Assembly: GCA_042218235.1 (NCBI GenBank)
Contig: JBDGRI010000023.1
Coordinates: 1 to 54,058, forward strand
DNA length: 54,058 bases
DNA from: Candidatus Pacearchaeota archaeon
Lineage (GTDB): Archaea > Nanobdellota > Nanobdellia > Pacearchaeales > GW2011-AR1
Direction of reading: 5' to 3'
This document shows positions 4,457-43,285 of this stretch, piece after piece (the first letter of the stretch is position 1; each line of letters opens with the position of its first letter). Position numbers and translations under genes: made by a program. Below the pieces are notes generated by a model. It ran no database searches. It was given only the letters and a program-made list of their open reading frames with translations, and was not told the DNA's origin.

Positions 4457-4593
4457 TTATCCCTTAAGTTTTTTATACTATGATTTTTTCTGAATAACTT
4501 TTTAAAACCGATTTTACTATTTTGAGTTGTCGTTCTTGTAGGGTCGGCGGTCGGAAAAAGCCGATCTTAGGAAAAAACGGCGTTTTTTCATAG

Positions 4594-4688
4594 GCGGGGA
4601 TGTCGGCAAAAAATCGGAAGATTTTTAGCTATTGCGTATTTTTTCGCCATACTCAAAAATCCACAATAGAGTGTAAACACTCCATTAA
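4594..4688 (+). repeat. stable-RNA-associated mini-element, copy A (13-nt tRNA-Leu 5' copy + conserved element + spacer)
   Basis: GCGGGGATGTCGG (4594..4606) matches 12 of 13 nt of tRNA-Leu positions 1-13. It is followed by CAAAAAATCGGAAGATTTTTAGCTATTGCGTATTTTTTCGCCATACTCAAAAATCCACAATAGAG (4607..4671). Near-identical blocks occur at 43145.. and 8613... Confidence 0.7.
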
Positions 4689-4772: not shown

Positions 4773-5017
4773 TTGATTCGAAACTTTGGGTTTATGGAAT
4801 TTTGCAAATTCAGGCAAATGTTTCCATGCGCAACAGAGTGAGCACTTTCAAAACGGAAGTTTTGATTTATTTTGGATTTTGGAGCGAAGCGAGAAAATAC
4901 GAGATAGTTAGAGGCTTTAGGTCTCTTACCGAATACTCTCCCCGTATCGATAAATTATGCATTAGTGCCTTAATCAGATTTGTTAAGAAATGGGTTAAAG
5001 GCTCCTTTTATATCGTA

Positions 5018-6075: not shown

Positions 6076-6867
6076 ATGAAATCAAGAAAAATTTGGTGGT
6101 TGATTGCAATCTTGGCTTTAGTTCTTTTTGTGTTAAATTATTCTTATTTGGACTCGCAACTTAAAGATTATCTGAACGATCGTAAAAGAGTTAATGTCAC
6201 TCGTGTTATTGACGGTGATACAATTGAGTTAAACGGAAGCAAAGACGTTAGGCTTTTAGGGGTAGATACTCCTGAGAGAGGTGAAAAGTTTTATGATGAA
6301 GCTTCGCGCTTTTTGGAAAATCGCATTGAGGGAAAGAAAGTTACTTTAGAGTTTGGGCCCGAAAAGAAAGGTTCTTATGGGAGGATTTTGGCTTATGTTA
6401 AGTTTAAAGGAGAAAACATTAATTTAGATTTAGTTAGAGAGGGTTACGCTAACCCTTATTTCCCTGGAGGAAGAGGGATGCATTATGGAGATTTTGTAAA
6501 GGCCTGGAAAAGTTGTTTGAGTAAAGGAGTTAGGCTTTGTGAAAAGTCCGATGATGTTTGTTCCAAATGCATTGAATTGGCAAAGTTTGACCACGAAAAT
6601 GAAAGGGTTGTTTTTAAGAACACTTGTTCCAAAACTTGTTCTTTGAATGGTTGGAGAATAGAAGATGAAGGCGGCAAGAAATTTGTTTTTGAAAATTTGG
6701 TTTTGGATTCCGGTGAGAAAGTTGCGGTTGTTTCGGGCAATGGAACTTATTCAGGTTCCGGAAAGTTGGTAGAATGGAGAGAGCATGATTATGTTTGGAC
6801 TTATACAGGAGATACTTTGTTTTTACGGGACGCCGAAGGCGATTTGGTTTTGTGGGAGAGTTATTGA
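6076..6867 (+). CDS. membrane-anchored staphylococcal-nuclease-like thermonuclease with a C-terminal lamin-tail-like domain
   Basis: N-terminal TM segment, then an SNase core (VIDGDTIEL...RLLGVDTPE...YGRILAYV) and a Cys-rich/LTD-like tail (GWRIEDEGGKKFVF). Confidence 0.7.
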   Translation: MKSRKIWWLIAILALVLFVLNYSYLDSQLKDYLNDRKRVNVTRVIDGDTIELNGSKDVRLLGVDTPERGEKFYDEASRFLENRIEGKKVTLEFGPEKKGSYGRILAYVKFKGENINLDLVREGYANPYFPGGRGMHYGDFVKAWKSCLSKGVRLCEKSDDVCSKCIELAKFDHENERVVFKNTCSKTCSLNGWRIEDEGGKKFVFENLVLDSGEKVAVVSGNGTYSGSGKLVEWREHDYVWTYTGDTLFLRDAEGDLVLWESY

Positions 6868-7190
6868 ATAAGGTTTATTCCTTCTTTTGAAGCTTTTTGG
6901 ACTATTCCTATCCTTTTTTTCAGTTTCTCAAATTCTTTTGGAGTATAACAAATTATGTCTAAATCTTGTTTTTTGTCCCACATTCCGTATGCTTTAGAAA
7001 TTCTTTCTCTGAAGCCCATTCCTTCAAATTTTTCAGAGATTACTATTATGTCAAAATCGCTGTTTTTCAAGTTGTCTTTTCTTGCCCTGCTTCCGAATAA
7101 GAGTATTTTTTCTGGTGAAAATTTTCTTTTTAGGAAATTTAGGTGGCTTTTTAGTTCTTTTATTGTTTCTTTACTTGGTTTTCTATCCAT
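6861..7190 (-). CDS. minimal nucleotidyltransferase (MNT-type antitoxin-like)
   Basis: 109 aa with the LFGSRARKDNLKNSDFDIIVIS motif (GSxxxG...DxD). It overlaps the upstream HEPN gene by 31 nt. Confidence 0.7.
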   Translation of the reverse strand: MDRKPSKETIKELKSHLNFLKRKFSPEKILLFGSRARKDNLKNSDFDIIVISEKFEGMGFRERISKAYGMWDKKQDLDIICYTPKEFEKLKKRIGIVQKASKEGINLIQ

Positions 7191-7546
7191 TTTAATAGTT
7201 CCTCGAGTTCATTTATATATTTTTCAACTTTGTCTTTGTGGTATAGTTTGTAGGGAGTTTCTCCTGCAGCATCCGGATAGCGAGTTGTTATGAATTCAGG
7301 AGTTAAGTCGCTTAGAATTTGAAAGTATTTTTTTGGAACTTTAGTTTCCTTTGCAAGATAAATTAGAGAGTGTGTTTGTCCAGGAGATTCCGCTCTTTTT
7401 TCTATGTATAGTGCCTTTAATGCTTTTTCTGCGGATTGTTGGCATAAAAAAGCCGATACGTAATATTCTTTTATCTTGATATTCTTTTTCGCAGCTTCAA
7501 TATCCTTTTTAGATTGCTCAAGAAATATTTTTGATTCTTCCCTCAT
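7160..7546 (-). CDS. HEPN domain protein (toxin-like partner of MNT)
   Basis: 128-aa helical protein with a C-terminal TTRYPD motif typical of HEPN. It forms an operon with the MNT gene. Confidence 0.65.
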   Translation of the reverse strand: MREESKIFLEQSKKDIEAAKKNIKIKEYYVSAFLCQQSAEKALKALYIEKRAESPGQTHSLIYLAKETKVPKKYFQILSDLTPEFITTRYPDAAGETPYKLYHKDKVEKYINELEELLKWIENQVKKQ

Positions 7547-7623
7547 ATAACAATTTTGTTTTTTGTGTATAAAAATGTTTTTGGATAATTGTTAGTGTTG
7601 TTATTTCTGAGTTTCAAATTACC

Positions 7624-7637
7624 AAAAGATTTATAAA
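7624..7637 (+). promoter_or_regulatory. BRE/TATA-like promoter box (AAAAGATTTATAAA)
   Basis: 22-29 nt upstream of the ATG at 7659. The context ATTACCAAAAGATTT is shared with the box at 9473. Confidence 0.5.
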
Positions 7638-7658
7638 TTGTTAGAGATCAGTTTTGAT

Positions 7659-8234
7659 ATGGTTAGCTTAGACGATTTCACACAGGATTTGAAGGAGTTT
7701 GGTAATAAGGCATGGGAAGGTACAAAGAAGAATTTTGTCTTTCCTGCTTTGTTTGCTACTAGTTTGATTGGATTTTCTGGGTGTCAGAATCAAGACCTCC
7801 AGTACAATGAAAATGCTGAGAGGGTGGCCGAAGACTTTAAGGATTTTTTAGAAAGTAAAGAGGGTGGCTATAGGTTTAATGAAGATAATAAAGACGGAGT
7901 TTCATTATCCGTAGATGCTAGCCTTCGAGAGGGGGATATTGTTTTTAAATCAAAGATTTCTCTGCATGGAAAATACGATATTTATCTTTCCTATATTGAT
8001 GTTCAAGGTAATGGCTTTAACGGAAGCGGTTCTTCATGGTACAATTTAAGTAGTAATTCCGATACTTATCGTTTCGAAAGTCCTTCTGTAAAAATGCTTG
8101 GTAAGAGAAGCCATATGGATACAGATTCTTATAAAAATGTGCAAGAGGATTACGTTACTCTTATGAAAGTAACCATGTCTAATGCTGACTATAGTTCTTA
8201 TAATACTGGACTTGATGATCTAAGTCTTGATTAG
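7659..8234 (+). CDS. hypothetical lipoprotein
   Basis: The track ORF starts at TTG 7638, but ATG 7659 fits the promoter spacing. It has a signal peptide with a lipobox (LIGFSGC). Confidence 0.55.
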   Translation: MVSLDDFTQDLKEFGNKAWEGTKKNFVFPALFATSLIGFSGCQNQDLQYNENAERVAEDFKDFLESKEGGYRFNEDNKDGVSLSVDASLREGDIVFKSKISLHGKYDIYLSYIDVQGNGFNGSGSSWYNLSSNSDTYRFESPSVKMLGKRSHMDTDSYKNVQEDYVTLMKVTMSNADYSSYNTGLDDLSLD

Positions 8235-8269
8235 CAAAAAGTCTTTTAAGCGGTATTTGTTCTCTTATG

Positions 8270-8533
8270 CTGTAGGCCAGACCGGCGTGCTAGCCCTACG
8301 CTGTCCGCAAATGGGCTATATGGCGGGTCGCAAAGGGAGGCGTGATAAGTCTGCTAGGAAACCCCTTTCCTCTTGTCGACGTCCTGTCTGCCTTGATGCC
8401 ACTTATGTGAACCGGGTCAGACCTTGATCGGAGCAGCCCTAAGCATATGTTGGCATGTTTGGCAGGTCGCAGGAAAGAGAGAGGTTTGGGACCACTTCCT
8501 GGCAGACTTTGAGCAACTCCCCTGGCCTGCTTT
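8270..8533 (+). ncRNA. ffs: signal recognition particle RNA (archaeal 7S/SRP RNA)
   Basis: GC-rich island in AT-rich DNA. A terminal helix pairs GUAGGCCAG (8272..8280) with CUGGCCUGC (8522..8530). A helix-5 segment pairs AAGUCUGCUAGG with CCUGGCAGACUU. Alu-domain loops are complementary (UAGCCC/GGGCUA). A helix-8-like motif reads GGGUCAGACC...GGAGCAGCCC. A TATA-like CTTTTAAG lies about 24 nt upstream. End coordinates are approximate. Confidence 0.75.
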
Positions 8534-8612
8534 GATTTTCCGCTTCTGTATTTGGAAAAGCGAAGTAGTAGGCTGAAATTTTAATTTCTGGCTCTACGCT
8601 TTGGAGTTGCTG

Positions 8613-8744
8613 ACAAAAAATCGAAGATTTTTAGCTAATGCGCATTTTTTCATTTCATTCAGAAAATCACATAGGCCTGGAAATATCATGAGTATTTCAG
8701 CCCATTTCGCCTTTTTTCGTTAAACTCAAAAAGTCAAAATGGAG
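8613..8744 (+). repeat. stable-RNA-associated mini-element, copy C (downstream of SRP RNA)
   Basis: ACAAAAAATCGAAGATTTTTAGCTAATGCGCATTTTTTC... is shared with copies A and B. It contains two tandem half-units, ending ...AAAATCACATAG and ...AAAAGTCAAAATGGAG. Confidence 0.65.
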
Positions 8745-8835
8745 CAACTCCCCTGGCCTACTTCGTGGGAGGTTGCTACAATGTGACGCACCTTCTGAAT
8801 TAGGATTTCTCATAGAGCAACTCCCCTGGGCCTAC
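8742..8835 (+). repeat. two extra copies of the SRP RNA 3' end
   Basis: GAGCAACTCCCCTGGCCT occurs at 8511..8530 (in the gene) and 8742..8761, with a one-base-insertion variant (CTGGGCCT) at 8815..8835. The first and third copies also share the following CTTTGATTTT. Confidence 0.7.
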
Positions 8836-8881
8836 TTTGATTTTTGGTTAGAATTTTAAAGCATGTTTAGTTTTTCTTAAC

Positions 8882-9196
8882 ATGTTCAGGGTTTTTACGA
8901 CAGAACAATTTGACAAGGATTACGAAAAACTTGACGAATCCGAAAAGAAAAAAGTTCGTAAGATAAGAGATCAATTGAAAGAAAAAGGTGATAGCGTTGG
9001 AAAGCCCCTTAGAAGAAGCTATTTCAGGGAGAAGAAATTTGAAGGAAAGAGATTGTATTTTTTGGTTTATAAGGAGTTCATGATTGTTTTAGGCGTTGGT
9101 ATTAGCGGTAAGAAAATACAGCAACATACAATTGACAAAATAATTTCTGACATAAAGTCTTATGAAAAATACATTAGAAAAAGGCTTGAAAGTTAG
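8882..9196 (+). CDS. RelE/ParE-superfamily toxin-like protein
   Basis: 104 aa with toxin-like layout: an N-terminal F..QF.KDY.KL segment, then GKPL and a basic beta-rich core (KRLYFLVYKE..IVL). Confidence 0.45.
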   Translation: MFRVFTTEQFDKDYEKLDESEKKKVRKIRDQLKEKGDSVGKPLRRSYFREKKFEGKRLYFLVYKEFMIVLGVGISGKKIQQHTIDKIISDIKSYEKYIRKRLES

Positions 9197-9402
9197 TCTT
9201 TCCACTCTTTTATTCTTCCGTGTTTAATGTCTTCCAAACTTTTCTTTATTTTATCGTATACTTCGTCGTCGACTTTTTTTACGACTATTGCACCATCAAC
9301 TTCCTCAACCGCAATTGTTGAATTTTCGTCTATGCCTAAATCTTTTCTCATCTTTCCCGGAATTACGAGCTGACCTTTTGAACTTAATCTTGTTAACTCC
9401 AT
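9193..9402 (-). CDS. AbrB/MazE/SpoVT-family antitoxin-like DNA-binding protein
   Basis: 69 aa with the LSSKGQLVIPGKMRKDLGI swapped-hairpin motif. It is convergent with the RelE-like gene, and their 3' ends overlap by 4 nt. Confidence 0.6.
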   Translation of the reverse strand: MELTRLSSKGQLVIPGKMRKDLGIDENSTIAVEEVDGAIVVKKVDDEVYDKIKKSLEDIKHGRIKEWKD

Positions 9403-43131: not shown

Positions 43132-43285
43132 GCCCAGATGGCAGGCAAAAAATCAAAAAGATTTTTAGCTATTGCGTATTTTTTCGCAAGGCTCAAAAAT
43201 CCACAATAGAGCTTGAAACAAGTTTCACTCGCATTGCGCTTTTCCAAAAAAGAAGTGGAAAATCACAATAGAGCGGTTACATTAT
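43132..43285 (+). repeat. stable-RNA-associated mini-element, copy B (13-nt tRNA-Ser 5' copy + element + spacer)
   Basis: GCCCAGATGGCAG (43132..43144) is identical to tRNA-Ser positions 1-13. It is followed by GCAAAAAATCAAAAAGATTTTTAGCTATTGCGTATTTTTTCGCAAGGCTCAAAAATCCACAATAGAG and a second half-unit ending AAAATCACAATAGAG (43273). Confidence 0.7.

Follow-up and report, generated by a model that had tools for sequence, protein, structure and literature searches.

The SRP RNA gene and the array behind it

The window, that is, the whole stretch of 54,058 nucleotides analysed here, comes from contig C16 of a Candidatus Pacearchaeota archaeon of the small-genome DPANN type, whose genome (789 kb, 36% G+C, 51 contigs, 88% complete) falls within the 0.4-1.4 Mb range of its relatives and has an A1:U72 pair in the initiator tRNA. 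The gene for SRP (7S) RNA is followed in this window by an array of palindromic modules interspersed with direct and inverted copies of the gene's own 3' strand and, beyond the array, by two open reading frames (Table 1). The Archaea_SRP model (RF01857) matches the gene over its full length (model positions 1-317, closing 5'/3' helix included) with 93.5 bits and E = 1e-21, which is 3 bits below the curated cut-off of 96.5 bits, relatives of the family scoring 63-122 bits; the Bacteria_large_SRP model gives 78 bits over 8273-8529. The box that precedes the gene is similar to the A-rich/TTTAAA boxes which the tRNA genes have some 30 nt before their start, and may be the SRP promoter.

Table 1. 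Features of the SRP RNA locus (T, copy of the SRP 3' strand; T', inverted partial copy of it; P, R and x, palindromic modules)
Feature	Position	Strand	Evidence and remarks
Native promoter-like box of the SRP RNA gene, CAAAAAGTC TTTTAAGC	8235..8251	+	Centred ~25 nt upstream of the RNA start; read directly
SRP (7S) RNA gene	8270..8532	+	Archaea_SRP RF01857, Bacteria_large_SRP
T1, gene-borne copy of the SRP 3' strand GAGCAACTCCCCTGGCCT	8511..8528	+	Pattern match
R hairpin, inverted	8529..8568	-	R1 covariance model 8523-8570(-), 48.4 bits; nhmmer; 90% inverted match to R module 43237-43265
x1 small hairpin GAAAT-TTTA-ATTTC	8569..8593	+	Resembles the hairpin behind tRNA-His
Displaced original trailer CTACGCTTT	8594..8602	+	CCTACGCTTTTTTCCC adjoins the gene in the relative
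T'a, inverted partial copy GGAGTTGCTG of the SRP 3' strand	8603..8612	+	
P module, palindrome CAAAAAATC-GAA-GATTTTTAGC	8613..8635	+	TATA-like in both directions
R1 hairpin	8636..8674	+	R1 model match 8633-8678(+), 44.4 bits
x2 small hairpin	8675..8702	+	Fold; P-R-x-R order as at 43146-43275
R2 hairpin, abuts copy 2	8703..8741	+	R1 model match 8700-8746(+), 55.9 bits
T2, second copy GAGCAACTCCCCTGGCCTAC	8742..8761	+	Ancestral A retained
Spacer, 6 nt	8762-8767		
T'b, inverted partial copy GGAGGTTGCT	8768..8777	+	In the relative, directly after the SRP gene
37-nt spacer of the older cassette	8778..8814	+	Common to the relative
T3, third copy, one extra G, then TTTGATTTT = start of a truncated R	8815..8835	+	Relatives: full R here, loose end CCGCTGTATATTTG
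104-aa ORF labelled RelE-like, outside the repeat array	8882..9196	+	Follows a T copy in the relative too
MazE/AbrB-type antitoxin-like gene, outside the repeat array	9193..9402	-	PF04014, 32.3 bits, 9.6e-8

The 18-mer GAGCAACTCCCCTGGCCT is found exactly at 8511-8528 and 8742-8759 and, with one inserted G, a third time at 8815, and has no match in any of 100 dinucleotide-preserving shuffles of the window. This triplication had been pointed out in an earlier, sequence-only reading of the window and is confirmed here, together with the continuation shared by copies 1 and 3 (8511-8539 and 8815-8844, 93% identity over 30 nt), the two inverted partial copies of the 3' strand and the start of a mini-element, CAAAAAATC..GATTTTTAGCTA, at 8614-8637. 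The same reading held that copy 1 needs a G:U pair in the SRP closing helix and that copy 2 is perfectly complementary to the SRP 5' strand, which is correct; copies 2 and 3 would give A:U. It went on to call the functional 3' end of the RNA ambiguous, which it is not really, as copy 1 alone is contiguous with the gene. Its proposed check with the archaeal covariance model places the end of the RNA at copy 1, and copies 2 and 3 therefore lie outside the gene; an RNA running through the repeats, or ending at copy 2, is rejected, both covariance models ending at 8529-8532.

The array is no assembly artefact, since independent Logan contigs reproduce it. One of them, from the probable source run, covers 7600-8948 with 2 differences, and exact contigs from a run of another study cover 8243-8582 and 8765-8969. 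The interval between the copies (8529-8835) is made up entirely of spacers and of P, R and x modules, its ORFs being chance frames of 40-50 aa, and no integrase gene, integrase remnant or other element gene was found in this interval. The weak Rfam matches in 8646-8777 (mir-3173 and BTnc231, E 2.8-6.4) are due to chance. A scan of the metagenome_contigs and genome_contigs collections with the 18-mer returned chance matches in unrelated bacteria only, with no BLAST similarity to the locus.

The two open reading frames had been read as toxin-antitoxin genes linked to the element. The AbrB-like assignment holds, with a significant match to the SpoVT/AbrB-type swapped-hairpin domain (Table 1). The RelE-like label of its neighbour finds no backing in Pfam (no match at E<0.1) or among PDB sequences (no match). 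A tie of the pair to the element is contradicted by position: both lie beyond the outermost repeat, T3, and they adjoin a repeat copy in a relative in which they are about 87% identical. We regard the MazE/AbrB gene and the ORF beside it, on this gene order, as ordinary conserved neighbours and not as cargo of the element.

Palindromic modules at the ends of stable-RNA genes

By whole-genome BLAST and pattern searches we recognised three kinds of palindromic module, which are freely combined: (i) P, with the consensus CAAAAAATC-N3-5-GATTTTTAGC; (ii) R, a hairpin of 40 nt with the consensus CTATTGCG-C-TTTTCC-loop-GGAAAA-T-CACAATAG; and (iii) x, a short hairpin such as GGCTGAAAC-TTG-TTTCTAAGCC. 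Over 33 copies and 13 pairs of R, 92% of the cells pair, as against 44-54% with the partner slid, and double-sided changes are found in 44 cells, as against 15 in shuffles. By this covariation, R is a real hairpin that is kept by compensatory changes. The ends of the elements are unlike each other (a P end, an R end or an x end) and no terminal inverted repeats of their own, of the MITE type, were found; where inverted sequences stand on the flanks of the modules, they have been copied from the host gene.

The modules also resemble expression signals. P is similar to native promoters, namely AAAAGATTTCTAACTATT before tRNA-His and AAAAAGTCTTTTAAGCGG 25-30 nt before the SRP RNA, and its left half stands about 20-33 nt upstream of tRNA-Arg and tRNA-Thr, while R carries runs of four to six T. 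It is probable that the modules supply start signals (P) and stop signals (the T-runs of R), which would render their insertion harmless.

The definition of R also clarifies the two sides of the SRP array. The stretch CTTTGATTTT common to copies 1 and 3 is the edge of an R module and not part of the SRP end, because with TTTGATTTT another R hairpin begins. At the gene itself, the first bases of the inverted R, GC, complete the SRP closing helix, with the G:U pair. The G at 8529 is thus the first base of the inserted R and replaces an ancestral A, which is still present in copies 2 and 3 and in the SRP gene of the relative. The start of the mini-element (8614-8637) has its counterparts before tRNA-Leu (4607-4645) and before tRNA-Ser (43158-43185), and the P-R-x-R block as a whole (8613-8741) is homologous to blocks at position 43146 of the same contig and on contigs C48, C32 and C13. 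As homologous blocks occur on other contigs, the block came from elsewhere; as it has diverged from the other copies (just ~38 nt are at least 92% alike), it bears no sign of very recent transposition.

The association of these modules with stable-RNA genes extends over the whole genome. The covariance model of R finds 57 copies in 0.79 Mb, and for 29 of 49 copies (59%) there is a tRNA or SRP gene within 300 nt, although such regions make up 3.2% of the genome (p ~1e-30). Seen from the genes, 21 of 37 tRNA/SRP genes have an R copy nearby, and in about 14 of the 37 a duplicated 5' or 3' end adjoins the modules. A copy of the 5' end (the first 12-16 bases) is present upstream of 9 genes (Leu-taa, Leu-caa, Ser-gct, Ser-cga, Ser-gga, Arg-tct, Thr-ggt, Tyr and Ile-tat) and a copy of the 3' end (the last bases) downstream of 7 (Ala-ggc, His, Asn, Gly-gcc, Arg-tct, Thr-ggt and SRP), with a chance expectation, obtained by pairing each gene with the flanks of another, of 0.47 for each of the two classes.

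These duplications have a recurrent layout, in which the gene end T is followed by a short spacer, by T', which repeats the inner portion of T in inverted orientation, by the modules and by a direct copy of T. T' is specific to the host gene: it reads GGAATTGAA at tRNA-Ala (T-loop TTCAATTCC), GATTTGAACC at tRNA-Asn, CTGTAGC and GTAGCT at tRNA-Arg and tRNA-Thr, and GAATCGAAC at a tRNA-Ser of another genus of the family (G053). At tRNA 3' ends the duplicated block begins in the T-loop (positions 54-57) and reaches the 3' end and beyond; at tRNA 5' ends it extends from about -1 to position 13 or 14. The duplications have no fixed length, measuring about 7-9 nt for the R-x pair (8529-8593), 13-14 nt at tRNA 5' ends, 18-30 nt at the SRP gene and about 45 nt at tRNA-Leu of G053. 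The inserts are 60-250 nt in size and none contains a gene. A duplicate is also present at an apparent protein-gene end (contig C27), and the extra gene-end copies decay, chiefly toward A/T.

Relatives and distribution in the family

A close relative is present in Logan contigs of four hypersaline-lake runs of another study (X3-X6), with an SRP gene 98.7% identical to that of the window and downstream genes at about 87%. A contig in three of these runs (X4-X6) consists of 8230-8528, ACGCTTTTTTCCC, 8768-8829 and CCTACTTTG, without 8529-8741, so that the SRP gene leads directly into T'b, the 37-nt spacer and a T copy. The trailer of the relative, ACGCTTTTTTCCC-GGAGGTTGCT, matches both 8594-8612 and 8760-8777, and the P-R-x-R block is therefore flanked by two T-spacer-T' units of about 45 nt. 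The earlier suggestion of an indel bounded by the repeats is thus borne out for 8529-8741, 8528 being joined in the relative to the flank of copy 2, but fails for the toxin-antitoxin-like genes downstream, which the relative possesses.

Other contigs of the relatives have an R1-like hairpin directly before the T copy that adjoins the downstream genes, a full R after a T copy, an R-x1 that continues into different sequence, or two T copies 72 nt apart, and tandem copies of the older cassette are found as well. As far as linkage can be pieced together from short contigs of mixed populations, the cassette types are common to the relatives and differ in order and number. Such differences fit a history of insertion with later recombination between T copies. 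The locus of the relative does not amount to a clean empty site, as it holds the same cassette types in another order; recombination between copies, rather than a new insertion, could therefore explain the difference between the two loci.

Within the family, the R covariance model, which gave 57 copies here, finds 17 in G053, 4 in a further genus (G039) and none in the 58 other genera, so that 3 of the 61 genera carry R. Of the P-R junction there are 10 copies here, as against no more than one, with a mismatch, in the 60 other genera. Among 16 R loci examined in G053 and G039, 12 hold a tRNA gene, in 11 cases with the R hairpin beside it, and several repeat the T-T'-modules-T layout. In G053, tRNA-Leu has a 45-nt duplicated block that includes a trailer hairpin, tRNA-Val is preceded by two perfect tandem units of 95 nt, and the SRP gene has an R hairpin 105 nt behind it, inside a duplicated trailer. 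A second copy of the SRP 3' end was found in none of 19 SRP loci of other genera. As it is patchy, lineage-specific and multi-copy, the R family behaves like mobile DNA and not like a conserved signal. The mini-element as a plain conserved promoter of stable-RNA genes is rejected, the P-R junction and the R hairpin being absent from 58 of the 61 genera.

Origin of the array and its significance

The locus is best seen as the SRP member of a genome-wide set of small hairpin insertions, in which the end of a stable-RNA gene becomes duplicated. It is likely that a modular family of palindromic repeats (P, R and x), which encodes no protein, was inserted here two or three times and so built up the small array at 8529-8835. 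The anatomy of the array, the genome-wide association, the conservation of the hairpin, the patchy occurrence of the family and the variation of the locus between relatives are demonstrated here, and from them we infer that the events were true insertions, made by a duplicative mechanism that copies the target. The family would settle at the transcribed ends of stable-RNA genes and leave the gene intact, each event adding, outward from the gene, first T', next the modules and last a new direct copy of T. Three cassettes are distinguishable behind the SRP gene: the older cassette (s-T'b-37 nt-T3) would be the one common to the relative; the P-R-x-R cassette, with T'a and T2, would have come to lie between it and the gene in this genome only; and the R-x pair would have been inserted exactly at the last bases of the gene and have rebuilt them, with G:U for A:U. 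The T copies would later have served as recombination points, the order and number of cassettes shifting between relatives.

The sequence-only reading had seen in the repeats an att-like scar that had lost its integrase. At the 3' end of a stable-RNA gene, inserted DNA is indeed enclosed by direct repeats, and this part of the proposal stands; an origin from a single element does not, since only P, R and x modules lie inside and these recur at about 14 of the 37 genes and in two other genera. A broader version, in which one or more integrase-borne elements entered the SRP 3' end, duplicated an att core and then lost nearly all of their DNA, has several points in common with known cases. Integrated elements are often accompanied by partial copies of tRNA genes, and direct repeats of the 3' end of such a stable-RNA gene are the classic attL/attR signature (PMC9897764); a phage att site has been described in ffs, the bacterial SRP RNA gene (PMC12540744); the duplicated tRNA blocks start in the T-loop, like integration of the T-loop type (the sublocation of Williams 2002, as cited in PMC9897764); and the genome holds an integrase beside a P-loop ATPase (contig C42). 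We nevertheless consider such decayed scars unlikely. The same P/R/x sequences of about 100-250 nt, in a fixed layout and with a host-specific inverted copy, are present at about 14 genes here and at many tRNA genes in two genera, and the independent decay of unrelated elements of kilobase size would not converge on this. A classical integrase is insufficient, because one attP cannot account for one family of inserts at about 14 targets. The inserts, moreover, are without any gene, duplicates are also found at 5' ends (positions 1 to 13/14) and at the apparent protein-gene end, and the other genomes with R contain no close homologue of the C42 integrase. The agent would rather be an active-looking family of mini mobile elements than one lost integrase element that left a scar.

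The hairpin kept by compensatory changes, the promoter-like P, the T-runs of R that could stop archaeal transcription, the perfect complementarity of copy 2 to the SRP 5' strand and the association with stable-RNA genes in three genera might all be taken as marks of a selected function without mobility, the modules being small RNAs or a device made by the host for expression or processing (promoter, terminator, decoy, or antisense to the SRP 5' strand). This seems to us quite improbable, given that the family is missing from 58 of the 61 sampled genera and from all 19 other SRP loci, that the number, order and presence of cassettes vary between close relatives, and that the extra copies decay, mainly to A/T. 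Purely local rearrangement, by slippage or unequal crossing-over in a hairpin-rich trailer into which nothing was inserted from elsewhere, would agree with the tandem older cassettes and the different cassette order of the relatives, and with the perfect 95-nt repeats before tRNA-Val in G053. It has very little probability in our judgement, as the P-R-x-R block is homologous to blocks on other contigs and as slippage leaves unexplained both the inverted copies and the layout shared by unrelated genes.

Insertion by a family of palindromic modules raises the question of the enzyme. In the genome (88% complete) we found no match to Cas1 (PF01867) or to Y1 transposases/RAYT (PF01797), and for TnpB (PF07282) the sole match is sub-threshold (18.7 bits, in a 108-aa frame); reverse transcriptase (PF00078) has no match in any of the three R-bearing genomes (G000, G053 and G039). 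A casposon-like origin, for which the 14-nt duplications might speak, is set aside, there being no Cas1 and the duplication lengths being variable; origins from IS200/IS605, RAYT, TnpB or retro-elements are also rejected, since neither a Y1 transposase nor a reverse transcriptase was found, nor any real TnpB. The genome has two tyrosine recombinases, one Xer-like and one on contig C42, and no close relatives of either were found tied to R-bearing genomes; the C42 enzyme was rejected as a partner, its homologues being ubiquitous, only 26-38% identical and not tied to these genomes. A classical transposase is insufficient as well, because the long, variable duplications and the inverted target copy are left unexplained. 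The target-copying insertion may be driven in trans by an enzyme, or else by the replication and repair machinery of the host.

With the attL/attR duplications that tyrosine-recombinase elements leave at tRNA, tmRNA and ffs genes the array shares direct repeats that are the gene end and bound an insert, an intact gene and, at tRNA genes, a repeat that starts in the T-loop; unlike them, it has a gene-less hairpin insert of 60-250 nt, some 14 target genes, an additional inverted copy of the target, repeats of 7 to about 45 nt, and serial arrays. The REP/BIME elements of bacteria, which are mobilised by RAYT, an IS200/IS605-like Y1 transposase, are likewise extragenic, multi-copy mosaics of several short palindromic units with compensatory changes in the hairpin. 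Here, by contrast, the host is an archaeon and no RAYT/Y1 transposase gene was found; to our knowledge, REPs do not duplicate and invert their target, and we know of no concentration of REPs at the ends of tRNA or SRP genes. MITEs and similar elements (Correia elements, with their promoters and terminators, and the Rickettsia palindromic elements, which leave genes unbroken) are also small, non-coding, multi-copy and lineage-specific, with expression signals that are tolerated or supplied, whereas our family lacks terminal inverted repeats of its own and a short, fixed target duplication, its flanking repeats being copied from the target. Target duplications of variable length (SINE) or of some length (14-15 bp in casposons, the repeat in CRISPR), and repeated insertion at one site that leads to an array, recall SINE/LINE, casposon and CRISPR systems, but there is here no reverse transcriptase, no Cas1 and no A-tail. 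The GC clusters and double-hairpin elements of fungal mitochondria are protein-less mobile hairpin modules of a very compact genome, often beside tRNA genes, and may resemble the present family, in another host and with other sequences. In full-text searches of the literature we found no description of archaeal hairpin cassettes with the layout gene end, inverted copy, cargo, gene end.

One might tentatively go further and speculate that these elements represent an undescribed class of gene-less archaeal mobile DNA. Such elements would target the ends of transcribed stable-RNA genes, together with those of some protein genes, and would enter through a duplicative, target-copying reaction that writes gene end, inverted copy, cargo and gene end; repeated rounds would build CRISPR-like arrays of gene ends, whose copies would then act as recombination sites and shuffle the cassettes. 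If this possibility were true, the reaction would fit no known transposase, integrase or retro-element chemistry, and it might be a route to archaeal tRNA introns and split tRNA genes.

For annotators, the locus carries the warning that partial copies of stable-RNA genes need not signal integrated proviruses or plasmids. The natural polymorphism in salt-lake populations, in which the cassette is present, absent or re-ordered, could help to reveal the mechanism in action. Genomes of DPANN archaea contain hardly any DNA to spare, which raises the question of how new DNA can enter them without breaking a gene. At this locus, a protein-less hairpin family would have entered right at the terminal bases of an RNA gene that is essential and present once, and rebuilt its end, pushing older copies outward and bringing promoter-like and terminator-like signals with it; the targets on record for the phenomenon thereby extend from the tRNA genes to the SRP RNA gene.

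Repeats and genes beside tRNA-Leu and SRP RNA

Besides the modules P (a two-way TATA-like palindrome), R (a conserved 40-nt hairpin) and x (a small hairpin), we identified a second repeat family, AGCCGATCTTAGGAAAAAACGGCGTTTTTTCAT, consisting of a hairpin and a T-run. The window copy lies directly upstream of the tRNA-Leu 5' duplicate, and at least 8 copies are present on other contigs of the same genome (G000). Related boxes, GGAAAGACGATCTTAGGGAAACAGCGTTTCCAT, are found upstream of several tRNA genes (Leu-tag, Ile-gat and Leu-gag). The composite downstream of tRNA-Leu(taa) also occurs downstream of tRNA-Thr on C22, and in part behind tRNA-Gly and tRNA-Ile. A nucleotidyltransferase/HEPN pair, a type VII toxin-antitoxin-like module, precedes the SRP gene by about 700 nt.

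Coordinates of the features (contigs of genome G000 unless G053 is given)
Feature	Location	Details
AGCCGATCTTAGGAAAAAACGGCGTTTTTTCAT copies	window 4561-4593; C43:13185; C44:110-136; C38:1265-1295; C22:271-303; C19:29990 and 26002; C27:23722	
Composite 3' of tRNA-Leu(taa)	window 4773-4940	TTGATTCGAA..GGGTTTAT, inverted R hairpin (4863-4909), TTAGAGGCTTTAGGTCTCTTACC, in this order
Minimal nucleotidyltransferase (PF01909) and HEPN (PF05168) genes	window 6861-7546	overlapping pair
tRNA-Glu	C1:9725-9923	predicted intron 125 nt
tRNA-Tyr	C34:15192-15350	predicted intron 84 nt
tRNA-Ile(tat)	C39:11493-11618	predicted intron 50 nt
Recombinase locus (L053)	C42:17200-20700	tyrosine recombinase (288 aa) adjoining P-loop ATPase (325 aa) and small ORFs of DNA-binding-like type
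P-R block at apparent protein-gene 3' end	C27:6084-6190	
tRNA-Val(tac) locus (L068)	G053:C4:20900-23000	
SRP locus (L076)	G053:C9:800-2800	

tRNA introns and a recombinase locus

Three tRNA genes have long predicted introns; in that of tRNA-Glu, the one inspected, no R module was seen. The recombinase and ATPase locus on C42, a contig on which no tRNA gene was found, is probably the remnant of an integrated plasmid or virus.

R hairpins and P-R blocks near other genes

In G053, a genome of another genus in the same family, two perfect tandem 95-nt units precede tRNA-Val(tac). Each unit combines an R-like hairpin and an x hairpin with two pieces copied from the tRNA: positions 1-14 and, in inverted form, its start. 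The two units look like the product of a very recent double event. In the same genome, an R hairpin lies about 105 nt downstream of the SRP RNA gene, within a duplicated trailer hairpin (GGTTTCTTTTTTAGAAAAA..GAAACTACAGTGGTAG).

Also in G053, direct repeats of 22 nt, GGCCTACTCTGACTTGTTTTTT, bracket a P-R block on C8 (L070), about 110-220 nt upstream of tRNA-Phe, and a partial inverted copy lies alongside. These repeats are not tRNA-derived and terminate in CTGA and a T-run; they may represent the 3' terminus of a small RNA that is not annotated. On C27 of G000, a P-R block lies at the apparent 3' terminus of a protein gene, and after it comes a second, diverged copy of that gene's last ~35 nt (encoded ends ..KEENEQRRLF* versus ..KEENKQRVVL*). 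Because the block is followed by this copy, the P/R repeat family may also duplicate the ends of protein genes.
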